DNA of 59,427 bases from Trichodelitschia bisporula (Eukaryota), in assembly GCA_010356995.1 (NCBI GenBank), contig ML996689.1, positions 1,816,691 through 1,876,117 of the forward strand. Reading direction: 5' to 3'. The position numbers and the translations under genes were made by a program. The notes under the pieces are model-generated. The model searched no databases, was not told the origin of the DNA, and saw only the letters and a list, made by a program, of their open reading frames with translations. Positions 5,737 to 59,427 of the stretch are shown here, piece after piece (the stretch's first letter is position 1; each line of letters opens with the position of its first letter).

Positions 5737-7010
5737 CTAAACCCCCCACACAACGCAGGTAGCCTGCTCCGCCCCCATCCGCATCTTCACCCGCGCAACC
5801 TCCTCATCAAAAAGATCACTCCACCCATTCCTCTTCAACACCACCACCGCCCCACTCTTCTGCAGCGCAACCGCCATGAAAACCCCATCAGCGGACACCG
5901 CGAACGAGCGCGGGAACGAGCCACCGGCGCGCTGGAGCGGTTGTTTGACGAGTAGCCCCGAGGGCAGGATGGCATATGTCATGAGGCTGTCGACGGACGG
6001 GTTGCGGCCGAAGGATGCGTCGTTGCGGTTGCTGACGATGAGGTTGGATTGGCCGAGGGTGTTGGTCTGCGTGGTCAGCTTCACGCTTTATTAACGAGAA
6101 GGGGGGGGGGGTGGGGAGGGAGTACCGTAATCGCAATCTCCGCCGGCGCAACCAGACTCGCCCCATCAGGCCCAACCAGCCTCTCCCTCCCCTCAGGCAA
6201 CGTATCCCACCGCCCAACCTCATAAAACGCAATCTCCCGCTCCGAGCGATGGCTCACCACATACCCCGCCACATCCCCCGCCAACTCCCCAACCAGGTAA
6301 AACATATAATCCCCATTCCCCATCGGCCCCGGCGAGAAAACACCATGCCTGGGCCCAGTACCCTTCGGCGTCTTCAGCGGCGCCAGCGGACTCAGCAGCC
6401 CATTCCCCTCCACGTAAAAAACGTGCACTTGATCGAATCCCAAATCCGGCACGAGCAGAAACCTGCCCGACGGATCCAGTAGCACCTGGTGCGGATGCGG
6501 CGCCTCCTGCCTCTGCGCAATCTTGCCCGTCTCAAACCCCCAGCCCTGCCGCTTGAAATCGAAGCTCTGCAACAACTCCAACTTCCCCTTCGCCCGGCGG
6601 TACGTCTGCAGTGCGCTCGCGCCGTAATGCGCGACCGCAACCGCACTCCCGTTGCCGAACACCACGGCCGAGACACCGCCCTGCAGCGCCTTGACCCGCG
6701 CTGTCTCTTCTAAGTTCCCGCCTGATTTGACGTCATAGGCGACGAGCGTGCCGTTCGGGCTCCCGCCGATGGCCTCGTCGACGAGGAACAGCGTATTGGA
6801 CGCTTTGTCCAGCGTAAGCCAGGACGGGGAGTTGGTGCTCGTATTCAGCGCGCCAGTCTGACGTAGCGCGTACCCGCCGCCGGCGGGCTTAGGGCCGAAC
6901 TCGAGGATGCTGATGTTGCCAGCCCAGTTACCAGAGCTGTAAGAAGAGACGTAGAGCGGCGTAGCCGAAGCCAACTGGGAAACGAGCATGAGGGGCGCTA
7001 CGAGCTGCAT
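5737..7010 (-). CDS. Secreted 7-bladed beta-propeller lactonase (6-phosphogluconolactonase / muconate cyclase family)
   Basis: Signal peptide from ATG 7010; QEAPHPHQ, VPDLGFD, GTGPRH, AEI, VSNR, FPRSF motifs; intron 6067-6125 (GTACTC..GCTGAC..CAG) joins the two ORFs in frame. Confidence 0.9.
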
Positions 7011-7407
7011 TGTGTTGATGTTTGTGGGGTGTGGTGGGAGCGGAGCGGCGGGCCGGGCCATTTTTGTAGAACTAAATTAGGCGGGGGCAACGTGGCCGTG
7101 GCTCTTTCATTCTCGTGTGGGGCAGGAAGGCTGGGCGGCATTTCAGCCGCTCACGTGAGGAGCCTTGTGTGTGGTATTTCGGACGACATCACGACAAACA
7201 CTGGCAATTGTCTGATATCTATAGAGTCAAGATGACCCGGAAAAATGTTCTCGGGGTTTCCACACTGAATGGCCGGCGCGTCATGTTGCTGTTGTCTTCA
7301 ACGCGTTTTCCTCAATGTCTTCCTCTTCTCCACAACAGCACAACCATCCCCATTCATCTCCACCCCCCCCCATTCCCACATCCATTTGACTTGCATTAGC
7401 CTTCACC

Positions 7408-10400
7408 ATGGCGTGGCACGCCGTAGAATTCACTTCGGTCCCACCCGAATATCCAAACACCCAATTCTACGACACCGCCGGCCCTCACCTCCCCCTCCCC
7501 GGTCTCGACCCTCCTCATCGCGGAGTCTTCGATCTCCCAGTCTCCTACCCTCCAGCTCCCGCCATAGCCTCCGGCTGTGACAAAAAGAACGCGACTCTGC
7601 ATGCCTTCCACGTAACCGCAGACCGAGGCTTCCTCCCGCGAGTAGACCCAGTCACCACCCTCCCCGCCGCCTTCTCGCCCCTAGAATCCCTCCTCCAGCG
7701 TCTCCCCATCCGCCGCGCCGACGGCACACCGGGACTCCTCGCCTCGCAGTCGCTCATCGACGCCGTCTTTTCGGAGTTGCCTGATCTGAGCGAAGAAATC
7801 GACACGCACGTAGCCGACTTGCCGCTGATGCTGGCGCTGTACCGCGACTACTCCTTCCTCGCGACTGCGTTCCTATTCGAGCCGTGCTTCACGCGGCGCC
7901 GCTCGAATCGGCACTATGGAGTCGCACGCATGATGCTCCCGCCCTGCATCGCGCGTCCACTGGTCAAGCTAGCGCCGTTCTACAGCGAGGGCCCGACGAG
8001 TCCGAAGCCGTTCATGGAGCACCTTGGTTCACTGGCTTTGTACAACTGGCTTTCGACCGGCGGGAAGAGCGTAGCACCGATTCGGTGGTTTGAGGACAAC
8101 CGGCCTGGGTCGTGGGAGGCGGAGTACACGTCGCTCTATGTGAACCTCTATCGGAAGAGCACGGGTCTTGTGGCGATGGCGGTGAAAACCATTACCGGTG
8201 CCGCGAATGCCAATGTGCTTGAGATGAAGTGGGCATTGGAGCGCCTCGAGGAGGTGCTCAAGGAGATTAACGGGCTCATGAAAGGTATGTCGCGCTCACC
8301 GAGGGGAGTGCACGCTAACGTTCCAGACATCTGGGTCTCCCGCATTGCCAAAGAGCGCCCCTCCTTCGCGACATTCCTCCTCAGCCTCGGCAGCCCGGGC
8401 ATGTTTCCCTGCGGCGTGAGCTACGAAGGCGTACGCGAGGAAGCATACTTCTTCACCGGCGAAAACGGCGCGCACGACATTCTGGTACGTCCTCCCCATA
8501 TCCCACTGAAGCTCCCCTGCTAACAGCCCAGTTTGCTACCGCCGCCGCGGTCCTGCAGATCCCTACACCCTCTTCCGCCGACCTCCCCGAGCTGACAGCA
8601 GATGCCGACTTCCATGCCTTCCGCCCAGGCACGCACGGCAAATTCCTATCCTGGCTCTCCGGCGCCGCGGCGGTATTCAACGTCCGCTCCACCGCCATCG
8701 CCGACCTCTGCGCCGCGGACGCCTACGCGCGCTGCGTGGACCAGGTTCGCTCATACCAGTGGCGCCTGTGGTCGGTGCAAAAGGAGGCCTCTAGCTCGCG
8801 CAGCGATGCAGTCTCAGAGACGACTGAGGCCAAAGACCTGAACGCTACGCTGGAAGTCCTGATTGCCCTGGATGATCAACATCTGCTGCTGGGCCACTGG
8901 GAGGATAAGATTTCCACCATCCGTGCGCAAAAGGCGGCTCTTGAGATAGAGCGCTTTGGGGCGCGCGAGGCGGCGTCGCGCATGTATGAGTACATGTCTG
9001 CACGCGAGAATCAAAACGCTAAATATGAGGCTGTTGTGGACGAACAGGTTGAGCAACTGGCGAGGTGGAAGCTTGGAGAGAACGAGTACCTGGCAAAGAG
9101 GCGCGCGTGGAAGGAGAACGCTCCGACTAGGGCCGAGAGGCAGGAGCGCGCAGAGGAGAAGAACGAGGAGTGCATGCACGAGTTGAAGACTAGGGAGGCA
9201 GCTTGGGCTGGTGACAAGGAAGCGGCGAGAGTGATCAAGAAATATGACGAGGGGCGGTTGAAAATTATCGCGCTGAGGTGGGAGGCCCGTGAGCGGAAGG
9301 CAAAGCAGCGGGAGTTGCAGATTAAGGGTGCATCGCAGAAGAAGAAAACGGAAGAGGAAAATCGCAAAAAGGAAGAGGCAGGCAAGGTCAAGACGGAAGA
9401 GGAGGGCATGGCCGAAAATGAGGAGGCGATGGCCGAGGACGAGGAGGAGATTCCCGAGGAAGAGGAGGCGATGTCCGAGGAAGAGGAGGACGATCACCGC
9501 ATGGAAGAGGAGTACGCCCTCCATATGGAAGAGGACGTTCTCCTCCGTATGGACGAGGAGGTGATGACCAAGGAAGAGTATAGCCGTCTCCGCCTGGAAG
9601 AGGCCATACGCGACGACCTGGCAGAATCGCTTGCCTTCCAACGCAAGCTCGAGGAGTGGATCCAGCGGGGGGACGCAAGCAATCACTCAGAGAAGTGCGA
9701 GGAGGCCGGAACTCAGTTGGAGGCCGCAACGGAGGCGAATGATGATGAGTTCATGCAGCCTTCACTCGAGGGTGCTGCGGGGGCGGTTCAGCATGCCGCA
9801 GGGCCTTTCCAGTCCCCAGGGCCGTCCCAAGACGACTGCGCGCTTTACATCGATGCCCAAGTTGACGAGGACGGCAATGAGGAATGGAGCGCCGCGGACC
9901 CTTTTCACGACTCCAAGCAGCTGCTCCCCACGCCTGCTGCGCACGACCAAGACGATTTCGCGCTTGAAAGCGATGACTCCCCGGGCCCGTCCCAAGACGA
10001 CTGCGTGCTTTACCGCAACCTTGAATCCGATGAGGAGAGTGATGACAGCGAGCATCTGTACTCCCCGGGGCCTTCGCAAGACAACTGTCGGCTTTACACT
10101 GGTGTTCAAGCTGATGAGGAGGGTGATGACGAGGATACCAACGCCGCAGGACCTGTCCAGAGCGACCTCGTTATGCCGCTCATCGTGCTCAACGGCGATG
10201 CCGAAGTAGATGCTGAAGGTGACAATGAGGATCAAAACGCCGCGGGCTCTTCCGCGGACGACGCTCAGCAGGCGCTCCCGGCGCCCGTTGAGGACGGGGA
10301 TGACGACTGGGCGGTTTCCAGCGACGATGAAGATGGTGCTTCTGTTAGCGTCAGCACTGAGGATAACGAAGAGGGCGGTGATGTTAGCCGCATCACTGAG

Positions 10401-10511
10401 GTTCATGAAGATGGTGACGGCATTGAGGATGACGAAGATGGTGATGATGTTAGCATCACCATTTCGGATTTTGAGGCGTGGTACGCTGGAGAGGGTGAAG
10501 ACTATTTTTAG
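7408..10511 (+). CDS. Degenerate indoleamine 2,3-dioxygenase (fungal IDO-gamma-like) domain fused to coiled-coil and acidic tail, ~1004 aa
   Basis: RGFLPRVDPV..LP, LYRDYSFLA..LFEPC, KPFME, MFPCGVSYEGV, GENGAHD match IDO-gamma; introns 8285-8326 and 8485-8531 splice into the frame of ORF 8736-10511. Confidence 0.8.
9813..10097 (+). repeat. Three dispersed ~36-bp coding repeats (SPGPSQD[DN]CxLY)
   Basis: Copies start at 9813, 9978 and 10062: TCCCCRGGSCCKTCSCAAGACRACTGY..GCTTTAC. Confidence 0.85.
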
Positions 10512-10998
10512 TCGGTCCTCAGTCGAGAGTTTGAAGATGGCTAGCGTGAGTGTGGCTCGTGGGTTCATTCTTGAGCCTTCAGCTATGCTTGAGCGTGAGC
10601 TGCATGCTTGATGACTCTCATGTTCACGGCGGGGCGTTGGGCGGTCTTTTCTAGCTTTGAGATACCCGAGATACCCTCAATGAAGTTAGCGGCTTGATAG
10701 CAATGTGTGTTTTAAACATTTTCCAAGGCAAAAGTGTGCTCGGGGCTTGTTGTAGTCGAACCATGGCCACAAGCCTGCTCCAAGGAGAGCCCATGCTGAG
10801 CAGAAGTCAGCTTTAGTCGCCCTCCTGATATAATTGGTGGAAAGGAACAGGAGGCGAACTCATCATATAATAGTAGTGCAAACCGTGACATAGACCTAGC
10901 TTGCGATAGACACCGTCTAAAGGCAGATAGTCACCCAGCGCACCAGCGACATGAAAGCATCAACGTCCGAAAATGTACAAGTATCCCATCTATGCCCC

Positions 10999-11710
10999 TC
11001 ACCCAACCGCCCATTCCTCCTTCCAAAAGGCCAACATCCCCTCCGCCTCCGCCTCGTCCATCCCAGTCATCTCCAACGTTGTCTTCGCCCGCGGGTCTGC
11101 ACCCATACAGGCCATATCAGCAAAGCTCGGATAAGCTTCTGTCAATCTCAGAAGCGCAGCATCGCTCATTGGTGGGGCCATTGTGCAACTCCGCACCAAG
11201 TCCAGCCTATCCAGTACCTGCGGCTTGGGTCCATTCTGTCGACGGCTTTCACGATACTGAGTCACTAAAGCTCCTAGCTTTTCCGGGCTGTCGAGGACCA
11301 CTGCCGGCACGTTCAGCGCGAGCATGCACAAGCGCAGCTGCAGGGCGGAGAGTGCATTGGCGGCCGGGGCACGAGCATGGACGTCGATTGCGGGGAACAG
11401 AAAGACTATGAGGGTGTGGGCACAGCCGGTGAGCGCGGCGAGGCGCTCGATGCGGATAATGGTGGAGGCTTCGCGCGAGGAACTCATGCCGTCCGGCGAT
11501 ACAATGAGAATGGAGAGATGGTCATTGCGGGAGAGAGGAATTTGCAAGTCGTGGGTTTGGAGGGAATTTTCTAGGGAATGAGCGAGTGTTGATGCCGGAT
11601 AAGGTTATGGGGAGGGTACCTTTAAGGCCCAGCCGAGATTCATCAGCAACTATGGCTGCCACGAGGCGGCCACATGACGGCCGACGCCGGAGACTGGAGC
11701 AGAATGTCAT
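10999..11710 (-). CDS. Conserved fungal protein, possible Spo16/ERCC1-like meiotic crossover factor
   Basis: ATG 11710; intron 11571-11619 (GTACCC..TAG) joins ORF 11522-11710 to ORF 10999-11547; alpha/beta core (SILIVS..IERLAALTG..LIVFLF) plus helical C-terminus ending AFWKEEW. Confidence 0.55.
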
Positions 11711-12711
11711 GCTGGCGGCAATGCTTACGAGTGGTGAGAGTGGACGTCATGGTGTTGAAGCTGTCAGTTGCTTGACTCGACATGGGAAGGGAAGGAGCGG
11801 GCCACAAAGCGAGACATGAGACATGACAACGGGAAGGGACGAAGAAGGATTGGGGAGGAAGGATCGATGGATGCATTCGAGACAAGATAAGGGAAATAAG
11901 GAAGGCGTGGCCGACGGCACGCGGCATGACGAAGTTGGTTGAAATGTTAGAAGAAGCGCCGAATGCGGAGAACAGCGCTTATGCATCGTTGTTTTTCACT
12001 GCAGCCGAAGTCATTTCAACTCCAGCAACCCCACGAACGAGCACCTGTATATTGTTGCATTTCACTACCAAACGCCCTATTATATACACTCCCCCTCCAT
12101 TAACACGCCCCCAAAAACTAGTAGCATCGAACTGGTGGCGCTTGTAGGGCGCCAGGCGCGTTTGCTGCAGGGCTGGTTGGGCTTGAAAGGTGTTGGTTGG
12201 TTGGCGCCAGTTCGACGTACCTGAGGTTTTCTGGAAGGCCGCGTTGGAGAAAGCCACCAGACTGCCCCCCAAGCTCCTCCCAAGACCCTCCCAACTTTCC
12301 ACAACACCCACCCCGTAGCTACCAATCCCGCCGGCACAGGCGTGAGATTCAATAGCTTCGCGAAGTGTCAATCTTCACCATCCATCAACTCTCCTCTACC
12401 CCCCGCCATCCTCTAACAAGTCACCGTCATTGAATAGAGGGCAACTTAGTCACTTCCGCTTCCTGGGCACCCACCACCACCCTGCATGCCCTGCTTCCCG
12501 ACCAACCCCACCCGTGAAGCGCTTCCGACCATCGACTGCATTGCCCCCGTCCTGTGACAACTGACGCCGGCAACATCAACCCTTCCACTCTCTCTGCCGT
12601 CCACCCGTCATCTCTGTCATCTTCTCCTCGCCACCTCCGCAAACCTCATCCATCAACACCCCCCTGCGTCTGCGTCAGTGGCTTCCCGTTGCCTTCTCTC
12701 CCCATCGCACC

Positions 12712-14715
12712 ATGTCATCCACTCGCCGCCAGAACATCCTGAGACGTCGTCGGCGCGTCGAAGACGAGGGCGAGGATGAAGGTTCCATCGCTGCCGACCT
12801 GATTGATGACTCGCAGAGCGACGCCTCGCTGCCGAGCGACCTTGACGACGATGCCGACGCAGACGACAGCGACCTCAGCGATACCGAGGGGCCCAATGCC
12901 GTCGACAGCAACATCAAGGCGAGCAAGCCGAACGGCGCTGCCAAGGTGCAGCTTCCTCAGGCGGCGCAGACGGCCGAGGTGCACGACATCACCTTTAGCT
13001 CGATACAGGACACAGAAGTCATGATGAACGGCCTGAAGCTTTCTGGATCGGAGGAGGCCATAGACTTTGACACACTGGAACAACCAAAGACAGAGGTCAA
13101 GGAGCGCAAGGCGCGACCCGAGGCGGAGGAACGGCCTAAGCGGGACCACGAAGAGTACAAGAAGAAGCGAGATGCCGACCCGGCCTTTGTGCCGAACCGG
13201 GGCGCCTTTTTCATGCATGACCACCGTACGGCCTCGCCGGGCCATAACGGCTTCAGACCGTTTGCTGGCCGAGGGCGCGGACGAGGACGGGGCGGTATCG
13301 GGGGACCCTATGCTCCCGCACCGTACGTTGACTCTCCCGTTCCTGTCTCCACTAACAGCCGCAGTCCTGCTGTACAGCCCGAGCCTGCAAGTGGCGTCTG
13401 GGCCCACGACCTGCACGACACGCTGCAGGAGCCGACCAAACCGGGTGCACAGCAGCCGAGGCAACAACAGAAGCCGGCACCCACGGCACCCGCAGCCGCA
13501 GGCCCAGACACACCGGCCCTCCCCGTGCGTCAGTTCTCAACGACAAAACTTCTCGGAAATATCCAAATCCGCGTCTCGCTCCCCGGCATGAAGGCGCCTA
13601 TAATATTCCAGGGCGTGCCCTACCACCAGCACACCAAGCTCCCGAACCACCGCCCGCCCCTTCGCCGCGATAAGCCGGTCCGCATATCCCTTCCCGACAA
13701 GCCGCCACGCTATATTTTCCCTGCGACAGAGCGTTCGTTTATCTTCATACCTCGTGCGTTGCGGCCCAACCAGCAGGGCTTCGGACGCGGAAAGGGCCGC
13801 GGCATGAGTTCATATGGCGGATTTTCGAGCCGCCGTACGAGTGCATACGGTGGCAGCGTATACTCTCCCAGCATCGCCGCCATGAGCCGGCGGTCATCAC
13901 TGGCGCGGGAGTTCAACCGGGACGGGCTTGGATCACCGACTGGCCCCGCGAGACCGGTGGTTCGCCTGCCGCCGGGCTCGCAACAGCACACGGCGGTCGG
14001 TACGCCGGTGCATCACCCAGCCACCATGTCGGGCCACAGCACGCCCATGACGCCGCACATGCAGTCACATGGGTACCCGATGCCACAAAAGCCGGTGTTC
14101 CGCGAAAACTGGGCACACCAGCTGCACCAGCCGCGGCCTCAAAAGACCATCTCGGTGGCGGGCATCGAGTCACCGGCATCGAACATGTACAGCCAAGACC
14201 ATCAGCCGTTCCAGCACCAGTTACCAGCTCACGTCAACGGTGAAGCTTTCTACCCCGGTCGCGGTCAGTATCCGACCCAAACGGCGGGCAGTACGCCACT
14301 GTCCAACATTCCCGAGCGCGCCATCCACGCGCAACCCTTCCAGCCCTTCCAGCAAGCCTACCCGCAGAGCTACTTCTACCCGGGTCAGCAGGCGTATGCC
14401 GGCGGACAGGTCATTGCACCGATGCTGGTGCAGAACGGACAGCAAGGATATCTTGTGCCGACGATTGCGCCCGCCGGGCCGCCCGCCGGGCCGCCCGCCG
14501 TGCAGCCGGTGCAAGGGACGGTTGCCGGGCAGCAAGCCATGGTGGCGTACGAGCAGAACGGCATGGTATACTACTACGATCCCCAGGCGTATGGGGCGGC
14601 CCCGGAGCAGGCGGAGAGTTTCACGCCGGCGCAGAACTACGCTGTGCCGGTGATGAATCCGAATGCGTACTACTACCCGCAAGTTCCGGGAGCAGTATAC
14701 TACCCGCAGCAGTGA
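12712..14715 (+). CDS. CASC3: CASC3/Barentsz (Btz domain) exon-junction-complex protein
   Basis: DPAFVPNRGAFFMHDHR and WAHDLH Btz motifs, RG repeats; probable in-frame intron 13323-13364. Confidence 0.85.
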   Translation: MSSTRRQNILRRRRRVEDEGEDEGSIAADLIDDSQSDASLPSDLDDDADADDSDLSDTEGPNAVDSNIKASKPNGAAKVQLPQAAQTAEVHDITFSSIQDTEVMMNGLKLSGSEEAIDFDTLEQPKTEVKERKARPEAEERPKRDHEEYKKKRDADPAFVPNRGAFFMHDHRTASPGHNGFRPFAGRGRGRGRGGIGGPYAPAPYVDSPVPVSTNSRSPAVQPEPASGVWAHDLHDTLQEPTKPGAQQPRQQQKPAPTAPAAAGPDTPALPVRQFSTTKLLGNIQIRVSLPGMKAPIIFQGVPYHQHTKLPNHRPPLRRDKPVRISLPDKPPRYIFPATERSFIFIPRALRPNQQGFGRGKGRGMSSYGGFSSRRTSAYGGSVYSPSIAAMSRRSSLAREFNRDGLGSPTGPARPVVRLPPGSQQHTAVGTPVHHPATMSGHSTPMTPHMQSHGYPMPQKPVFRENWAHQLHQPRPQKTISVAGIESPASNMYSQDHQPFQHQLPAHVNGEAFYPGRGQYPTQTAGSTPLSNIPERAIHAQPFQPFQQAYPQSYFYPGQQAYAGGQVIAPMLVQNGQQGYLVPTIAPAGPPAGPPAVQPVQGTVAGQQAMVAYEQNGMVYYYDPQAYGAAPEQAESFTPAQNYAVPVMNPNAYYYPQVPGAVYYPQQ

Positions 14716-16615: not shown

Positions 16616-19600
16616 ATGTCTACTCCAGCATCACAACCTCTGATGGTCGGTCCGGACACTCTCATCAGCGTCCGCATCTCGCTGCAGGGCATCACTCGTC
16701 GCTACAAGATGTCGCTGTCGGAGCTGACGCCTGACGTCCTCCCTGGCAAGGTGCGTCGCTAGCCGCCAGGCTGCAGCCTACCCCCGAAACTTGACCTCAC
16801 CCAAAAAACTAACTTCACCAGCTTCGCACCCTTTTGGGCATTCCTGCCGACCGCGAGGTGCTGTTTGAGCGCTACTCCGACTCCGCTGCCGCCTACGTGG
16901 CTCTCGACCCCAACGGCAGCTCGGCCAGCTACAAGACGTTGCACCGCGCCGCCAAGGCCAAGCTCAAGCTGCGCCTCAAGGCCACGGTTCCTGCGGGCGA
17001 TGGCGACAATGATGCCGTGCCCTTTGTGCTCAAGAAGCATGTCGAAGCACCGGCGCAGATTCCGCTCTTCGATTGCGTTCCTGCACCGGCTGCGCCTCCC
17101 CCCACTTCACCTTCCGCCTCAACTGCTGAGGCGGAGGCCGCCCCAGTCGGTGCCACCCCACCTGCTCTTGGCACGCCCGAGGCCGAAGTCCAGCAGCAGC
17201 AGGAGCCGACACCACCCAAGGAGCGTTCCGTCATGGAGCAGCTGCCGAACGGCGATGTGCGCATCGCGGTTGAGGACCTCCCCAAGGTAAACATGCACGT
17301 CCTCCGTAACCTGCTTCGGTCTCATTCGGAGCAGCTGCCCGTGCAGCTTCCACCGCGCGTGACGGCGCAGTCGACGTGGTCTGTCTTCTGCAACGTGTGC
17401 GATACACCCATGATCAATGACCACTTCCACTGCAACACGTGCGACAACGGCGACTACGACCTGTGCCTTGAGTGCGTCGCCAAAGGCAAGCACTGCCTTG
17501 TCGACTCGCACTGGCTCGTCAAGCGTCGCATCGTCGACGGCAAGGTCGTGTGGAACTTCTCGGAGAAGCTGCGCAGCCGCTCGCTGGTTCAGCACGAGAT
17601 GCCGGGCGCCTTCACGGAGGACAAGAAGCCGGAGCCGGAAGAGCAGCGCACGTGCAACTGCTGTGTCACTGGTATGCTTTTTCGTAAATTTCGTGTTACG
17701 GGCGGAGCTCTAATTACCATTTAGCCTACCCTGAGAGTCACATGTTCTTCTGCGCCGACTGCGCCGATTACGACCTCTGCACCCGCTGCTTCGAAGAGAA
17801 TGAGCATGGTCACCACCCAGGCCATACATTCCAGGCCGTCCGCATGGAGGGCGAGATGGCGGGCGCGCTCAAGAGCCTGTGCACCCCCGGTCGCGGTGTG
17901 CACCACCCGGCCACTTGCGACGGCTGTGACAAGACCATCTGCGGCGTGCGCCACAAGTGCCTCAACTGTCCCGACTGGGACTACTGCTCCAAGTGCATCA
18001 AGGATGCAGCGAAGACGCACCCGAAGCACCGCTTCGCGCCGCTGTATGAGGAGATTGCGGAGCCGCCGTACAACACAGTGCGCCACAACAACGTCTACTG
18101 CGACGGACCACTGTGCAAGACGGGTAACAAGACCATCCTCGGTGTCCGCTACCGCTGCGCCATCTGCCATGACACCGACTTCTGTGCCAACTGCGAGGCG
18201 AGCCCGCAGAACTTTCACAACCGCACGCACCCGCTCATCATGCTCAAGACACCAGTGGCCAACTTCAGCGTGACGACTATCGACGACACGAAGGAGCTGA
18301 TCCGCGAGATGCACCCGTACCGCTCGAATAACACCACGTCGCCGACGCGAACTATCGCTGAAATCCAGCCGACGGAGCCGAAGGCGGTGTCGGAGAAGAT
18401 CAGGGTGTCGGACCTGCTGCAGAAGCCGGCTTCGGAGAAGATCAAGATCAAAGACCTTGTCCACCCTGTCGACACACCAGTGCCAGGCTCTGAGGGTCTG
18501 CAGGCATCCTTTGTGCGCGACACCATCGCCGACGGCACAGCTATGACGGTCGGTCAGCAGTTTGTGCAAGTGTGGACGCTGCGCAACCCCGGCCCGCTAC
18601 CGTGGCCTGCCGGCTGCCGCGTGCGCTACATTGGCGGCGACAGCATGCTGAACATCGACATGAACCAAAACACCCATGCCGACATTTCTGCAGCGGCACA
18701 GAGCAACATCATCGAGCGCCCGGTCGAGGCCGGCGAGGAGATCTCGTTCCGCGTCGCCATGAAGGCCGACGGCCGTGAGGGCCTGCAGATTTCGTACTGG
18801 CGTCTCAAGACGCCGGACGGTGTGCCGTTTGGCCATCGTCTTTGGTGCCACATTACGGTGGCGAAGCCGGCCGCTGGCACCGCTCCTACGGCCGAGACGA
18901 CACCCGCCCCTGAGCTCCTCAACAACATGCTACATCGTCGCGAGCAGCTGGAGGATCGCATGGCACGCCTAAACCGCAACCTTGTCGATAACCATCGCCG
19001 CTGGTGCGAGCAGTCGACGGCGAAGCGCGAGGCGCGGTTGGCTGAGCGCACCGAGGCCATGGCGCGTGCGCGCATGCTGCACAACCTTCACTCAACGATG
19101 CCCCCTGAGCTTGTTTCGGAGCACACACGGCGCATGCAGGCCCATCGCAAGATGGCGCTGCGAGGCCACGCAAAGCCGACGGACGACCAAGAGTCTGAAG
19201 TTGGTTCCTCCTTTGTCCCCCCCAGCGGCTGTCAGCGCCGCCAAAACCACGGCGAACTCAGTAAGGCGCGCCATGCTTCAACCCTCGATGCCTTGGACTC
19301 GGCGCGCGAGAAGGCTTTGGCCGCGAGATCGGCGATGACGGCCACGATGGAGGCCGAGCAGCGTGAAGGGCGTGTGGCGGACATGCGTGAGATGCAGAAC
19401 CAGGTCCGTGAGAAGATGGCCGAGGCCCACATGCGTGAGGTTGCACGGGCAGCCCGCATGGAGGCTCTGCGCATGGCGGCGTCGCTGCCCACTCCCCCGA
19501 AGTGGGCGGCGAGGGAGCAGCAGAAAATGGACACCAAGGAAGCGGCGATCGCCCCGACTTTGGTTGGGTACCATCCGACGGAGATGGCCAACAATGCCCC

Positions 19601-19707
19601 TACCCAAGCTGAGGCTCCGCAGGTCGCAGAGGCTACGAATGAGGTTAAGCTGGTCGAGAAGGCGGCTGATGTTCCGGCTCCGGTTGTGGCTCCAGTTGCT
19701 GAACTGG

Positions 19708-19741
<34 letters not shown>

Positions 19742-20054
19742 TGCGATGGCGGCTGTGGCTGCTGCTGCGGCTGCGATTACGGCTGAGGCTGCTGCTGCGA
19801 TGGCGGCTGCGGCTGAGGCTGCGGTTGCGAATGCGGCTCCCGCTGCGGCTCCGGTTGCCGAGCTTGCGGCTCCGGCTGAGGAGATGAAGAACGAGGCAGA
19901 ACGCAGTGTTCCCCCCACCACGCCTCTTGTTGAGGACGTGTCTGACTCTGACACGTACGAGGAGCTCGACGCCGAGGACGAGACGTGGCAGACAGACGAG
20001 GAGTATGATATTCTGGACGCGAGCGACGAGGAGGCGCCTGTCGCGAAGAAGTAG
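16616..20054 (+). CDS. NBR1: NBR1-type selective autophagy receptor (PB1, 4 ZZ zinc fingers, FW domain, C-terminal AIM)
   Basis: ATG 16616; introns 16751-16821 and 17672-17724; four ZZ motifs (CxxC..CxxCxDYDLCxxC); FW domain WTLRNPG..WPAGC..SYWRL..FGHRLW; DEEYDIL. Confidence 0.9.
19709..19742 (+). repeat. Coding hexamer microsatellite (GGCTCC)x5.7, Ala-Pro repeat
   Basis: Direct observation inside NBR1. Confidence 0.9.
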
Positions 20055-52022: not shown

Positions 52023-54329
52023 CGATCCCCCCTTAAGGGGCGAGCTCCTGCGAGCCAGCCCTACACCTATTGCGCCGCCCTCAGGACCTCCAAATGCCCA
52101 CTCTAAGATCCCACTCCAAAATCCCATCAAACCTCCTTTTTTAACACCATCAGGGCCAATCTTGCTGCAATGTTGTCCTCCACATCCTTCTCCCAGGCAT
52201 CCCAAGTCTCGGAGGTATACTTTTTGAATGACTCATGTGGTCCCGGTTTGGATTGATATGTGCGGTGGAAAGCCGCTATCAACGCCGGGCATCCCACCAA
52301 GTCATCCCAGTCGTACCACTTCCGGTCATCAGGCCAGCCTCTCCACTTCACCATGTACTGCAAGTACTCTCTTTTGCCCGTCAACGGGTCTTTCTTCCCC
52401 TTGAACACCCGCGAATTCAAGACCTCTTCAACTTCCCACTCTGCTTCCCCCTCGTGCACTTCCAACGGGCCTGGCTCTTCCTCTTCTTGGCCCAAAACCG
52501 GGGGATCCGCGTGGTGCAGGAGCACCGGATGAAACCATGGGAAGATCTTGAACGAGGGAGGTAGCTCCAGCTTGACAGCGCTACCGTTCTTTCCAACGTC
52601 AATCACTTTGAACCGGCCCAGGTTGCGGTGGTCGAGCTTGCGGCTTGGACGGTTTGTTGCAACATTCCTTGCATCGAGCATAACCATGTCACCAACGCGG
52701 AACTCGGGCGCTGGGATGCGATGTCGATCCGCGTACTCCTTCTGCACAGCCTGAGCCCAGGCCATTTGATGCTTGAGTGTTTCGCGGACTTTGATGATGC
52801 GGCTGATGATGCGGTCAACTTGTTGTCGTGACAGCTTGTCCTTGAATGTCAAGTCCTGGTCGCCGGGCTCTGGCGGCTCAATTCCCCAACATGGCACGTA
52901 ACCCTTGGTGGCCTCGAACGGGGCAAAACCGGTTGTCGCGGATACACTGGCGTTGGCCTCAAACTCGGCAATGGGCAAGTACGCGACCCAGTCGTCCATG
53001 GCAAAGTTGACGTACGCCCTGAGGTAGGATTTCAACCAGCCGTTTGCCCTTTCCGTCTGACCATCGGTCTCGGGATAAAAGGCTGTCGACAGCTTTGGGG
53101 TTGTGCCAATCCTTTTGCAGAGGCGAGCCCAGAAGTGGGAGACGAACTGTGATCCGCGGTCGGAGATGATCGATCGGGGGTATCCTTCTTCTCGCCATAT
53201 CCATTCGAGGAAGCGTGCAACCACGTACTCGGTCTCCAAGTTCTCCATTGCGATGAAGCGCTTTCGTTTGGAGAGACGGTCTACGACCACGAGAATGTGC
53301 TCGTAACGGACGCCGAGAAAAGTGCACACCGGCAATGGTGTGATGAAGTCGAGGGTGATATCTGTCCAGTATTGCGCAGGAATGGGGAACGGCTTGAGTA
53401 GGCCTTGCTTGCCTTCGGAGTATGGCTTGCTCATCTTGCAGCGCTGGCAGCCCTTGACCCAGTTTTGCACCGAGGCGTGCAGTCCAGGCCAGTAGTAGTG
53501 TCGGGAGATCTTGCCGTAGGTTGCTTCTCGACCAGCATGGCCGCCGACAGGGGAAGCGTGAGCTTGACGGAGGATTTCGACACGGGCACCGAGGGGAGCG
53601 AAGAGCTTTCCTGCGTGGTATAGTAGGTCCTGCCCATTGTAGGGGATGATCTCACAGGCGGCGAGCTCAAGCTTCGTAGTACCAGCAATGAGATCGGAAG
53701 GGAGTCGACGCGTGCCGCTGCGCTCGGCGTCGATGATTCGCTGGAGGTTCCCGTCGTTTTCGTACTCGGCAAGGACAAGATCGTGGACCGATGGGGGAAG
53801 GGGCTCGCGTTCGTCGTCCTCGGCGGATAGGACCATGAGCAGCGCCGTTGCCTGAAGACTGGACATTTCCGGCTCCTGTTCCATCAGCAAAATGGAGGCG
53901 AGGCGGACCGCCGTGTGCGAGGATGTCGAAGCGTCCCTGTTGCGGGCTTGAATCATTTCCGGCTTGAGCACCGTCTGGCGCATGTACTGCGAGCGCGGGT
54001 CTTCTGGACCGGGAAGGAAGGTGGAGTGGCGGGTGAGGCTATCAGGCTTGGTGCTGAGCCTGCCCGGCCGATGGATGATTCGAAAGTTGAACTCCGATAG
54101 AAACTCTGCCCAGCGCGCTTGTCGCCTGGTGAGGTCCTTGGACGACATGAACCATTCGAGATTGCGGTGATCGGAGAGGATACGGATGGGATCCTCAGGG
54201 CGATTGCCGGACAGCTCAGGGCGCCATTCTTCAAAAGCGCGGATGATGGCCAGCAGTTCCTTGTCGTAGATTTCGTAGTTGCACTCCGCTGGGCTCATCT
54301 TTTTGCTCATGAACGCCACGGGGTGCAAT

Positions 54330-54503
54330 TGTTGGAAAGCGGTGGCTGTGTTCAGCCTTACCCAGGTTCAGCCACAGAGCTCGAGTACAAGTAGACTCGG
54401 GATCCCTATCTCTTTGACAATTAAGCAACTTGTTCATGGACAGACCCTTGGTCCAACTTATGATGCTGTGATGTCTTCATTGATCACTCATCCCCTTTCA
54501 ACA
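54330..54503. mobile_element. Solo LTR (174 bp) with 5-bp target-site duplication
   Basis: TGTTGGAAAG...CTTTCAACA termini flanked by GCAAT (54325-54329 and 54504-54508); removing it restores DDGVL-HPVAF. Confidence 0.9.
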
Positions 54504-54561
54504 GCAATACTCCATCGTCCCCTTTCTGCGAGAGAATGGCGGCCACAACATAGTCAGATGC

Positions 54562-54769
54562 TGTCACCGTCAACAATCACGCATGCACGATCAAGATGTG
54601 GGTAAGACGTAGATTGTAAAGCTACGGAGTAAAGGTGTCAGGGACTGCGGGTAAGTAGGCCTGGTGTACGAGTGTGAGTTTGGCGGCTTGGCACAGCGCC
54701 AAGCCCCATACAAACCCGGTGATGGTGCGAGCCCATGGAGCAACAGAAACCGGGTGTCATACCGTGACA
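54562..54769 (-). repeat. 3' LTR of Gypsy element 2 (208 bp)
   Basis: TGTCAC...GTGACA termini; preceded on the minus strand by PPT GAAGGGGGGGGG-TCG. Confidence 0.85.
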
Positions 54770-55714
54770 CGACCCCCCCCCTTCGAAAGAATGCCCCCCC
54801 CCCTCAGCTGTTATTGGAGAGACGATACATCTCATTGGCAATCTCCTCCCAACTTTCCTTGTTGCCAAAGCTCGGGTGTGGACCGGCCTTTGTCGGATTG
54901 GCACTGTGATAGGCTTCGAGCAAGCCCCGGCATCCGACTGTGTCCCAATACGGCTGCCATTGAGGGTTCTTGTTCCAATCAGGGAAGCCGGAGTACTTGA
55001 TCTTGTACTGTAGTAGCTTCCGGCGGTGCTTCCCGCGACGAGTGTCGGACGGATCAGCCTCCCGAGGAGCCCACCGACTGTCCGCAATCTCCTGAACGAT
55101 CCATTCGGGATCTCCATCTTCCGTGACAATTGGTTCCGGAGTCTTCTGTCGCTGCCCGGTGATTGGTTCCGCGTCTGCTAGCTCTAAGAACCAGTTGTGG
55201 AACACAGGGTGGATCTTCATTGTGTCTGGGAGCTCTAACTCGCAGGCGCTTCCATCGACTACTCGCAAGACCTTGAAGGGTCCCATGCGTTTGTGATCGA
55301 GGGAACGGCTCGGGCGTTCTGTCTTGATGTTTCGGGAGTCCAGGAATACGTAATCCCCAGGCATCAGCTCCGGGGCAGGGAGACGCTTCCTGTCGGCAAA
55401 CTCCTTCTGCCTAGCCTGACTCCACGCCAGGTTGTCCTTTAACATGCTCTGGAGGCAGCCGATGCGCTGCACTAGCTTATCCGCTTTATCAACTTCGAGC
55501 TTCACGTGCGCAGGTCCACGCGGTACAGGGGGAAATTCTGGTTGCAACCCCGCGTTCGGAATGTACCCTTTGGTGGCCAGGAACGGCGCGATGCCTGTCG
55601 ACTCGCTAGGTGCCGCATTGGCCTCAAACTCGGCGAACGGCAGTAGATCTACCCAATCACTCTGTACGTAATTGGTGAAGCAGCGTAAATACTGCTTTAG
55701 ACCTGCGTTTGCAC
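54562..55714 (-). mobile_element. Ty3/Gypsy chromovirus element 2 (integrase C-terminus, chromodomain, PPT, LTR); 5' part lies in the gap
   Basis: ANAGLKQYLRCF..WVDLLPFAEF, RMGPFKV, IHPVFH, chromodomain EWIVQEIADSR..LQYKIKY; stop at 54804. Confidence 0.92.
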
Positions 55715-56364
55715 NNNNNNNNNNNNNNNNNNNNNNNNNNNNNNNNNNNNNNNNNNNNNNNNNNNNNNNNNNNNNNNNNNNNNNNNNNNNNNNNNNNNNN
55801 NNNNNNNNNNNNNNNNNNNNNNNNNNNNNNNNNNNNNNNNNNNNNNNNNNNNNNNNNNNNNNNNNNNNNNNNNNNNNNNNNNNNNNNNNNNNNNNNNNNN
55901 NNNNNNNNNNNNNNNNNNNNNNNNNNNNNNNNNNNNNNNNNNNNNNNNNNNNNNNNNNNNNNNNNNNNNNNNNNNNNNNNNNNNNNNNNNNNNNNNNNNN
56001 NNNNNNNNNNNNNNNNNNNNNNNNNNNNNNNNNNNNNNNNNNNNNNNNNNNNNNNNNNNNNNNNNNNNNNNNNNNNNNNNNNNNNNNNNNNNNNNNNNNN
56101 NNNNNNNNNNNNNNNNNNNNNNNNNNNNNNNNNNNNNNNNNNNNNNNNNNNNNNNNNNNNNNNNNNNNNNNNNNNNNNNNNNNNNNNNNNNNNNNNNNNN
56201 NNNNNNNNNNNNNNNNNNNNNNNNNNNNNNNNNNNNNNNNNNNNNNNNNNNNNNNNNNNNNNNNNNNNNNNNNNNNNNNNNNNNNNNNNNNNNNNNNNNN
56301 NNNNNNNNNNNNNNNNNNNNNNNNNNNNNNNNNNNNNNNNNNNNNNNNNNNNNNNNNNNNNNNN
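55715..56364. other. Assembly gap (650 N)
   Basis: Run of N. Confidence 1.
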
Positions 56365-56620
56365 CAAGTCCCCGGCCCAGTCGCTGTCCGTGTAGCCGAC
56401 AAGGGGTTTGAGGCTTCCCTTGTACACGAGAGCCAAGTCGATGGTGCCTCTGAGGTATCGCATGATCCGCTTCACGGCCTTGATGTGTGCTTCGGTTGGG
56501 TTTGACGCGTACCGGCTGCATGCGGACACAGCAAAGGCGATGTCGGGTCTGGTACCGAGCATGGCGTACATCAGTGAGCCGATGGCTTTGGCATACCAGG
56601 TCTTCGCAACCTCCGTAGAC
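56365..56620 (-). mobile_element. Ty1/Copia retrotransposon fragment (RT end / RNase H start)
   Basis: YAKAIGSLMYAMLGTRPDIAFAVS..KRIMRYLRGT..GYTDSDWAGD. Confidence 0.93.
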
Positions 56621-59427
56621 CAGAGCTTTCAATAATTGATACGATATCAAGTATCAGTGATATATATTATTGATATATCGGTGATACTGATACTGATACG
56701 CCGAAGTATGTATTCATGTATTACTGATACTAAAGGATATTGAAGCTCAAATGCGTTCATATACGCTCAAAAGTTTGCCTATCGTGCTCTCCGTACTATA
56801 TTCTATCAATTGCCACTGGTTCCTATACATATGTTGCAAAAATGGATTTATAGTCAAAAAATTCGTGCGTTTGAAATGTCGATCTCTCTCTCGCCATAAG
56901 GATTTCTAGGCAACTACCTTAAAACCACCCTCAGCCAACTCTGGCATGCTACATTGCTAGTATCGCGTCCGATATACGCGTCAAACACGGAGGTAAGCTA
57001 GCTCCGAGGCATACCGAAGTTCTCCGAGCTCTTCAGCATATATTTCCGCGTAGTGATTTATGTGTGCTCTGATGCGTCGTGTGGTGGATGGAAGTCAAAT
57101 TGGCCTAGCGTGGGCCAATAGGAGGCCGAGGACGTGGGCTGCAACCACGGGGTTGACATCTCTCACATCTTTCACATCTCTATCTCCGTCACCTAAATCA
57201 CCCACGCACGTACGCACCTCATCTCTCGTCTCTCACATCACATCTTGTCTCTGACATCACTTCGCCACCACACATATACCAGCCAATCATAACTTGCGGC
57301 GGAGGACTCGAGATGGCAGACAGTCTGCTCTTCGTACCAGAGAGCTCGCCTCTCTCTGAGCCGCAGTCATCTTCGGACTCTCTCGCCTCTGAAGTTCCAT
57401 CTATCGCGTCATCAGAGGCAGAAGCATCGGGATACGAGCTGGTCGACGGTACACGGAAGCGCAAGGCAACATCGGCTGTCTGGAAATACTTCAGAGATCC
57501 ACGCGATACGGAGCAGAAGCGGCGCGACGGCTACCGTGTGTACTACTGCCCGCGCTGCCCTGGCAAGCCGAAGCCATACACCGTCAGCACTAACGCCAAG
57601 AAACATCTTCTCAGTGAACACGGCATCGACGTGGATGCATTGGAGAACCCGAAGGCCGGAAAGCGGCAACAAACACTACACGAGGCAATCCAGCGAGGAG
57701 CTTTGGAGGGCAAGCTCAATCATTCAACGTTTCGAGAAGCTCAGCTTCGCCTCATCGCCACACGCCGTCTACCGTTCAACACGGTCACCTGGCCTGAGTA
57801 CAAGGATCTGCTCATTCTCCTCAACCCTCGGATCTCGTCAATGCTCACCCTCTCGCCTGCCACGGTGGCCACCGACTTGGAAAGGAGTTTTGCTGTTCAC
57901 AAGGCAACAATTCGCGATAAGCTCTCAAAAGCGCGATCTAAGCTGCACTTTGGCATTGACCTCTGGACGTCAACCCATCGCAAGGCGTACATGTCGATCA
58001 CTGGCCAGTACGTTGACGAGGCATTTATCTTGCGTACAATTCTCCTGGGTCTACCCCGCATCATTCATGACCACACTGGCGAGAACATGGCTAATCTCCT
58101 CTTCTCAACCCTCAAAGGCCTCGATGTTATTCACAACCTCGGCTTCTGCGTAGCAGATAATCATGGCGCAAACGACAAGTGCCTCCGATTTCTGTCCGTC
58201 AAGCTCAAGCATGAGAACATCTCCTTCGACCCTGTCCACCAGCGCATCCGTTGCATCGGGCACATCATTAACCTTGCGGTACAGAGTTTTCTCTTCGCAA
58301 CAAACAAAAAGGCAATGGAGGAGGCGCTGGCATGGGCATGGGAACGGGACGATGAGGACGAAGTTGAAGGCTTTTCGGACCGCCTACACGCCCACCTCCT
58401 TGAGGCCCAAGATCCGTCACTACCGGTCAGTTTTCGTCGCGAAGCAGGCTGGAGGAGCACCGGAACTCTAGGAAAAGTGCATAATTTGGCCGTTTTTATA
58501 CGGTCTTCTCCCCAGATTAGCGATGCATGGGGAGAGCTGGCTCATGAATCTCTAGGAATCGACAATGAGACGCGCTGGAACTCATGGTTCTATCTCCTCG
58601 AGAAGGTCCAGAAGCACCAAGGTCACCTCTTCACTTTCTGTCGAGAGTACTCCAGCAATCAGACAGTTAAAGCTAATACGCTTACCGACGACGACTGGGA
58701 CGTCATCGCTGAGACAGTTCGCTTCCTGAGCTTCTTCAAACGGGCAACTTTGGATAATGAAGGAGCATTCGTGTCGCTTGACCGAGCACTGGTAACGCTT
58801 GATGCTGTCATGACGTTTTGCGAGCGCGAAGTTGTGGGCTCTCCCATCCCCCCAGTTCCACGCATCTGCTAACTTGGCCGTAGGAGAAGCCATCATACCC
58901 GCGCAAATTTCAAAATTCTGTCAACATGTGCTGGCTTGTGCTCAAAAAGTACTACGGCTTGACCGATAAATCGCCTATCAATGCTGCTGCATTGCTTCTA
59001 CACCCAGCCCGGCGCCTGGCATACCTGCAGAAGAACTGGAACAAATCATGGGTGAAACCAGCCATCGCCAAAGTGCGGCAAATGTGGGAGGAGTATAGGG
59101 ATTTGCCAGCCATCATTCACACAACTCAGAACGCTGCTAATCCGCCTCAGAGGGATATGGACCAGTACGATGACATAATGGCCTCAATGAGCGTCTGTGA
59201 CTCGGATATCCCGCAACAGGGTGACGAATTTGATGCCTTCATCAACTCTCAGCCGTATCAAATCCCGTGCTCAGCGTTGGAGTGGTGGTGCCAGGATGTT
59301 CAGCGTCGCAGCTATCCTCATCTCGCGCGCATGGCGATCAATGTGCTCTCGGCACCTTCCTCGGCAGACGAGAACGAGCGGGTGTTTTCAGGTAGCAGGC
59401 GAACGATCTCATGGGAGAGAGCTAGCA
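56621..59427 (+). mobile_element. hAT-family DNA transposon, left end at 56621, continues beyond the window
   Basis: Copia frame stops abruptly at 56620; CAGAG terminus followed by an AT-rich subterminal region with six TGATAC/GTATCA repeats; transposase downstream. Confidence 0.85.
57313..59427 (+). CDS. hAT transposase (BED finger, DDE, C-terminal dimerisation domain), 3' incomplete
   Basis: SAVWKYF..CPRC..HLLSEH BED finger; IDLWTS, ADN, RCIGH, ETRWNS; intron ending 58883; LLHP..WW..YPHLARMAINVLSAPSSADENERVFS. Confidence 0.92.

Follow-up and report, generated by a model that had tools for sequence, protein, structure and literature searches.

Gene structure at the locus

The 59,427-nucleotide (nt) stretch of DNA analyzed here, called the window below (positions 1,816,691 to 1,876,117, forward strand, of contig ML996689.1 in the Trichodelitschia bisporula assembly GCA_010356995.1), carries at 7408-10511 on its + strand a gene predicted to encode a protein of 1004 amino acids (aa), in which a domain related to fungal gamma-type indoleamine 2,3-dioxygenase (IDO-gamma) is followed by a long acidic extension. 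The predicted product is called the window protein, and all positions are those of the window. An uninterrupted spliced frame of about 1004 aa had been described in a sequence-only reading of this DNA, made before any database search, and exactly 1004 aa were obtained when the two predicted short introns were removed; 1018 aa are obtained when predicted intron 1 stays in and only intron 2 is removed.

The start ATG at 7408 lies within the context CACCATGG. In the unspliced DNA, this ATG is contained in the frame 7390..8523, and from 8319 another frame stays open up to the stop TAG at 10509-10511; retention of intron 2 leads to an in-frame stop at 8524-8526, ahead of the proximal helix and the tail. 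The signals of both predicted introns are of the complete fungal type (Table 1). The spliced protein aligns with its relatives free of gaps at both junctions, and this join to the family is the main support for the two-intron model. When exon 3 was compared with the family profile by hhalign, its first 114 residues corresponded to family columns 312-424 (98% probability, E-value 2.6e-13), so the IDO domain runs on across intron 2.

Table 1. Features of the IDO-like gene, residues at family-conserved sites (56 relatives compared) and tandem units in the extension.
Feature	Position	Strand	Residues	Description
Exon 1	7408-8284	+	1-292 and first base of codon 293	Pro-rich N-terminal extension (~1-59), then IDO small domain, the best conserved part
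Predicted intron 1	8285-8326	+		42 nt; GTATGT..GCTAAC..CAG; in frame, without stop
Exon 2	8327-8484	+		Bears FATF (Ala307) and the altered DE-loop-like motif FTGENGAHDI
Predicted intron 2	8485-8531	+		47 nt; GTACGT..GCTAAC..CAG
Exon 3, coding	8532-10508	+		Stop TAG at 10509-10511
Exon 3, IDO-homologous part	8532..8963	+	346-489	Ala350; YQWRLW with Leu424; deleted TATGG/JK-loop block; remnant of last family helix
Mixed-charge, Pro-poor, helix-prone stretch	8964..9416	+	490-640	Residues 463-640: 21% Asp/Glu, 23% Lys/Arg
Glu-rich stretch	9417..9731	+	641-745	38% Asp/Glu, 9.5% Lys/Arg; partly made of 21-24-nt tandem units
Asp/Glu-rich, Lys/Arg-poor tail	9732..10511	+	746-1004	30% Asp/Glu, 1.5% Lys/Arg, net charge -74; ends in stop TAG
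Distal position	8137-8139		244	Tyr (TAT); relatives His 56/56, family V-H
Arg of FRTF	8368-8370		307	Ala (GCG), motif FATF; relatives Arg 55/56, gap 1
Conserved Asp	8544-8546		350	Ala; relatives Asp 54/56, aligned to Asp of human FDV
Proximal His	8766-8768		424	Leu (CTG); relatives His 50/56, gap 4, Gln 1, Ala 1
21/24-nt units	9395-9603			Seven decayed tandem units
36-nt units	9813-10097			Three to four, SPGPSQDDCxLY-type
42-nt units	10323-10469			Three

Relationship to fungal IDO-gamma

Residues ~60-493 of the window protein are homologous to fungal proteins of the IDO gamma type. The Pfam IDO family (PF01231) was detected in residues 64-296 of the unspliced first piece with 35.5 bits against a cut-off of 26 (E-value 6.6e-9). 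A near-length search gave 22 matches, the best 13 of which are 457-485 aa long and 38-42% identical; they come from Ascomycota and Basidiomycota, and several are named "indoleamine 2,3-dioxygenase gamma type". In the exhaustive search of representatives, 282 matches were found at E-values up to 0.001 (the best being a protein of 493 aa with 37% identity), and among the 150 matches listed only four exceed 600 aa, none with a similar extension. A search for longer proteins gave two matches, both being IDO-gamma joined to a GTP-binding protein. Over the domain, nothing nearer than ~42% identity was found in the near-length, longer, representatives and metagenome searches for an orthologue. The first metagenome scan gave no match, and a profile scan of metagenomes gave 80 loci with identities up to 58%, these referring to the conserved N-terminal segment only.

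A quick maximum-likelihood tree was constructed from 49 rows, namely the window protein and 48 relatives of 400-600 aa; all rows outside this length range and five rows lacking the C-terminal part or having large gaps were left out. The window protein is placed inside the starred 18-row IDO-gamma set (96) and inside a 22-row set supported at 99. Its end branch measures 1.99 changes per column, compared with a median of 0.65 and with 0.07-0.45 in the surrounding rows, and because this branch is so long the exact position in the tree is unsure. The origin from IDO-gamma, which had been proposed in the sequence-only reading, is supported by the Pfam match, the level of identity and the placement within the clade.

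Two side observations concern the canonical members of the family. The IDO-gamma clade mixes Ascomycota and Basidiomycota, and its canonical proteins are strikingly alike across phyla: those of Phyllosticta (Ascomycota) are 75-77% identical to those of Lentinula (Basidiomycota), with a support of 100 (proteins P0006, P0008, P0009 and P0011), which suggests either very strong constraint or gene transfer. In Alternaria and Stemphylium (P0001, P0002), the annotation gives a single protein of ~1060 aa in which IDO-gamma and a GTP-binding protein (PF00009, PF03144) are united, probably through the merging of neighbouring gene models and not by true fusion.

Lost heme and substrate residues

The window protein was compared residue by residue with 56 relatives of 380-800 aa. 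At the site of the proximal heme-ligating His, where the family reads FRWRHW, the window protein reads YQWRLW; the Arg of FRTF is replaced by Ala and the distal His by Tyr (Table 1). These substitutions, as well as the absence of the TATGG block, had been noted in the sequence-only reading, and each proved to lie where that reading had put it, at positions that are near-invariant in the relatives and, for the first two, map to the His and Arg of human IDO1; no His aligns at the heme site. The loss of the conserved Asp (Ala350) is additional to the changes listed there. The block HPTATGGSPIVTWLPNQL, which contains the TATGG motif of the flexible loop that covers the active site, is deleted, only one of the 15 highly conserved columns of this part being kept, and no TATGG loop was seen in the other reading frames. 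Family FRGESGANDS reads FTGENGAHDI, with the G-E-x-G-A core retained.

When a profile of 18 family members was aligned with human IDO1 chains, the relevant columns paired with the His of SYHLQ, the Arg of LRIYLSG, the Ser of FLVS and the Asp of FDV, the best score among the chains aligned being that of one chain with His at the Ser position. We take these residues to be His346 (proximal), Arg231 (substrate-binding), Ser167 (distal) and Asp274 of human IDO1. Each of the 57 metagenome loci reaching the proximal site has the His; 23 of the 80 loci do not extend to it. The DE and JK loops are described in PMC9786828 as covering the IDO active site.

Replacement of the proximal His was also observed in distant IDO-like proteins. 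In Coemansia it is Gln in P0049 and P0175, that is, in two of the three members of the cluster (the third is partial), and in the eukprot protein "Clim" P0104 it is Ala.

Since both the iron ligand and the Arg for the substrate carboxylate are gone, we infer that the window protein would have no tryptophan dioxygenase activity, and the reading as a heme-less protein appears well supported by the aligned residues. We also considered that the protein may still bind heme or another cofactor through a different ligand, since two new Tyr residues stand at pocket positions, Tyr420, which replaces a Phe four residues, or one helical turn, ahead of the lost His, and Tyr244 at the distal site, and since the loop over the heme retains its G-E-x-G-A core. 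Such ligation is found in no relative, however, and the equivalents of the Asp and Arg as well as the entire TATGG loop are lost too, so that we regard this possibility as very improbable.

The acidic C-terminal extension

The usual C-terminus of the family corresponds to about residue 493 of the window protein, and the frame runs ~510 residues further. The Asp/Glu-rich tail recognized by the sequence-only reading is evident in the composition of both distal segments (Table 1), and the net charge of the repeat-built tail is near -100. Only two Pro residues occur in residues 463-745. Residues 746-1004 carry repeated units of the SPGPSQDDCxLY and DDEDGxxVS types, and the decayed tandem units in the DNA indicate that at least part of the tail grew through local duplication.

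The same reading had called the middle stretch a coiled-coil, a label that was not confirmed by a heptad test of residues 490-745. The signal is only mildly above that of shuffled sequences: out of 300 shuffles, nine reached the mean register score of 0.293 and 195 reached the maximum. The 7-residue period is derived in part from the 21-nt DNA repeats. "Charged, helix-prone" would be a safer description of this stretch.

For the extension, no homologue was found among proteins of 362-1154 aa, no look-alike in the atlas and no match in the 80 metagenome IDO loci; the 659-aa product of exon 3 has no Pfam family, and there is no Rfam family within 6900-11100. No histone-chaperone fold or domain was found beside the acidic tract by Pfam, homologue search or atlas, an acidic composition alone being common to those families. 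At the DNA level, the IDO part is indeed fused to an acidic extension built of repeats, an architecture without counterpart in the collections searched and one that the sequence-only reading did not recognize.

Transcript evidence and the single-chain model

Two sets of contigs from one sample, X3 and X4, each carry a contig that skips 10796-10859, and two DNA runs do not skip it. On the - strand, this interval is a 64-nt GT..AG intron with a CTGAC branch site, belonging to the convergent neighbour gene. Because the interval is skipped in X3 and X4 and not in the DNA runs, both sets were taken as spliced RNA; this assignment is a guess from one joint in one sample, and the contigs are of unknown strand and keep the dominant path only. 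A contig start near 7280-7287 is shared, within one study only. Some ~86 nt separate the contig end of the convergent neighbour from the stop codon of the IDO-like gene, and the 3' ends of the two genes therefore probably overlap.

Several observations weigh against a conserved gene whose product is a single spliced chain of 1004 aa. X3 record 8 covers 7679-10795 unbroken with both predicted introns unspliced, and it does so while removing the neighbour's 10796-10859 intron; the same record also extends into neighbouring genes. X4 record 11 ends 15 nt inside intron 1, and no spliced junction of either predicted intron was seen in the X3 and X4 contigs. The unspliced contig counts weakly against the spliced product. 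The tail is of low complexity, with a lower GC content at third codon positions (GC3; 0.62), and both the very long branch in the tree and the change of 53 of the 107 family-invariant columns also fit relaxed constraint. Conservation of the architecture, as judged from the collections searched, appears unsupported by any orthologue. The sequence-only reading had suggested RNA-seq across the 8484/8532 junction and into the tail as a check; in the X3 contig, continuity through the region was found and splicing was not, both introns being kept.

The contigs bear on the view that the 1004-aa chain is an artefact of the gene model, either because the product ends early at ~358-372 aa with intron 2 retained or because the acidic part comes from a transcript of its own. 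Besides the bridging contig with its unspliced introns, an in-frame Met near the start of the extension would suit this view, as would a tail that has no homology to anything and that the family never carries. Against it, exon 3 continues the family alignment straight after the splice, which is not expected to persist if translation stopped at 8524, and 660 codons run from the IDO part through the tail without a stop. Separate transcripts for the IDO part and the tail, which the sequence-only reading had named as contrary to its proposal, are not what X3 record 8 suggests, since this record bridges both, although a contig does not prove a single transcript. We consider an artefact of this kind rather improbable.

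Constraint and decay

Codon scores and GC content by codon position in the gene frame match those of eight neighbouring genes in every segment, with GC3 of 0.75 (exon 1), 0.76 (exon 3, IDO part) and 0.72 (middle stretch), and with the lower value given above for the tail. The other five frames have lower codon scores than the gene frame, and antisense coding was rejected on this basis. None of 1000 dinucleotide-preserving shuffles of 8901-10511 had an open run as long as the 536 codons observed there (maximum 315). Drift was simulated in 300 replicates with unconstrained substitutions only, the present coding sequence standing in for the ancestral one; those remaining free of stops numbered nine at 80% amino acid identity, none at 60% and none at 42%. 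Insertions and deletions relative to the family all preserve the frame. Repeat-induced point mutation (RIP) was examined as a cause of the fast divergence and was rejected, the indices (TpA/ApT, 0.33-0.69; (CpA+TpG)/(ApC+GpT), 1.10-1.37) not being RIP-like.

Of the 107 columns that are invariant in 18 family members, 54 are kept. The highly conserved columns kept are, from the N- to the C-terminal part, 26/29, 16/23, 5/11, 23/43, 4/12, 1/15 and 1/5, the first value referring to the N-terminal part, 4/12 to the surroundings of the proximal helix and 1/15 to the loop. Identity to the family consensus is 65% in the small domain (reference positions 20-125) and 7% in the C-terminal family helix. 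These values argue that the constraint would now rest on the N-terminal small domain and not on the heme half. Taken together, the open frame, the codon use, the shuffles, the simulation and the uneven constraint speak for a frame that selection has maintained during most of its past.

A dying gene has to be weighed against this, namely a redundant IDO-gamma duplicate which has lost its constraint and become useless only recently, so that the open frame would be a relic giving unproductive RNA. The very long branch, the loss of half of the invariant columns, the almost unrecognizable C-terminal family helix, the RNA-like contig holding both introns unspliced and the lack of an orthologue in any collection searched are all in line with it. 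Neutral drift over most of the branch is nevertheless very unlikely, as the absence of stop-free replicates at 60% identity indicates; the in-frame insertions and deletions, the intact signals of both introns and of the start context, the coding-like codon bias throughout and the high retention in the N-terminal domain all stand against decay. We regard the dying gene as unlikely. The decaying duplicate that the sequence-only reading had set against its own proposal has thus been weakened by the open frame, the coding-like codons and the conserved N-terminal domain, and a recent death after a long functional history could still have taken place.

Genomic neighbourhood

The neighbours of the gene are ordinary and include a lactonase, GNAT, Btz/CASC3, an NBR1-like protein, RPL15e, an RRM protein, an enoyl-CoA hydratase, mS35, an aspartyl protease and Sdh5. 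Since these are ordinary housekeeping genes, the context of a biosynthetic gene cluster was rejected. There is no second IDO-like locus within the window. The convergent neighbour gene occupies 10597-11604 on the - strand, and its open reading frame (ORF) at 11002-11604 has no Pfam family. The Btz/CASC3 exon-junction-complex gene (12565-14712, + strand) and the NBR1-like gene with ZZ fingers and N_BRCA1_IG (16813-20051, + strand) lie a few kb downstream and appear to be conserved genes of an ordinary kind. Among solved structures, RPL15e and mS35 are matched best by 7olc, 7r81 and 6yw5, presumably ribosomes of Chaetomium and Neurospora.

Transposon-related sequences are present in the distal part of the window. 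A Ty3/gypsy-type pol ORF with RNase H, integrase, chromo and Tf2-1 SH3 domains lies at 52130-56471 (- strand), together with an AT-rich block at 54807-56471 (GC content, 0.34) whose RIP indices are not RIP-like, and a hAT dimerisation domain was found in an ORF at 58884-59426 (+ strand) which runs off the end of the window.

Comparison with known systems

The closest family is the fungal IDO-gamma of Pezizomycotina (idoC of Aspergillus), with which the window protein has in common the 38-42% identity, the small domain and the order of domains. The members of this family are 430-500 aa long and keep the proximal His, the Arg, the Asp, the distal His and the TATGG loop, whereas in the window protein all five are gone, the chain reaches 1004 aa and evolution is several-fold faster. 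IDO-gamma of Pezizomycotina is described as a low-efficiency enzyme with very low catalytic activity whose role is poorly understood (PMC4191572; PMC5786828).

The Coemansia proteins and the eukprot protein mentioned above resemble the window protein in that the iron ligand is replaced in an otherwise recognizable IDO-like protein. They differ in being distant in the tree, in keeping the FRTx Arg and the distal His, and in having 490-530 aa without a tail; their His losses are events independent of that in the window protein.

In mammals, IDO2 has been described as a kind of pseudoenzyme (PMC8097162), and a mouse IDO1 mutant without heme binding still signals (PMC9786828). The likeness to IDO2 and apo-IDO1 is an analogy only, in which an IDO fold serves something besides tryptophan turnover, and those proteins, unlike the window protein, keep the heme ligand, can bind heme, signal via phosphotyrosine motifs and have no acidic extension. 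In Aspergillus terreus, a duplicated fungal IDO has been repurposed in a biosynthetic gene cluster, as stated in the accessible part of PMC7448278. This is likewise the recruitment of a duplicated fungal IDO to a new role, but as far as that part of the source tells, the A. terreus protein is still an enzyme and lies in a cluster, whereas the gene in the window lies among housekeeping genes and has lost its catalytic residues. In the literature searched, mostly outside subscription journals, neither a fungal IDO lacking the heme ligand nor an IDO bearing a tail of this type was found.

Interpretation

We give about an even chance to the reading that the gene encodes a lineage-specific, very fast-evolved paralogue of fungal IDO-gamma, which would now be non-catalytic and most likely a heme-free protein of the IDO fold. 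Judged by its sequence, the 1004-aa protein with its orphan acidic extension is a probable lineage-specific IDO pseudoenzyme. The proposal of the sequence-only reading, a heme-less IDO paralogue repurposed for another function, is thus sustained as to the loss of the heme and substrate residues; the single 1004-aa chain is a predicted product, both introns being kept in the RNA-like contig that bridges them.

As for how such a protein may work, the small domain and the remodelled pocket may have been retained as a module that binds a small aromatic ligand or a protein. The extension would have grown by local repeat expansion, and it may provide a helical spacer of charged residues as well as a disordered, polyanionic tail, which might bind basic partners or keep the protein soluble. 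Any specific role, such as that of a scaffold or of an acidic chaperone-like protein, is a guess. In a stronger form, the gene would encode a natural heme-free IDO-fold protein kept by selection, whose small domain and Tyr-lined pocket sense a ligand or hold a partner and are coupled to a polyanionic tail handling basic proteins; we hold this form to be doubtful.

The weight of the finding is moderate, as it concerns a single gene of one genome with a predicted product. Weakly active or inactive IDO paralogues, among them fungal IDO-gamma and mammalian IDO2, pose a standing puzzle, and heme-free IDO1 is now considered to signal non-catalytically. An IDO fold that is unable to ligate heme while keeping its small domain and an open frame of 1004 codons would, if the present reading is true, be a clean test case for non-chemical roles of the family. 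It would also be an example of an enzyme gaining a disordered tail through reading past its stop and repeat expansion. A heme-free form kept by selection, if true, would be a genome-fixed fungal counterpart of the non-enzymatic role of mammalian apo-IDO1.

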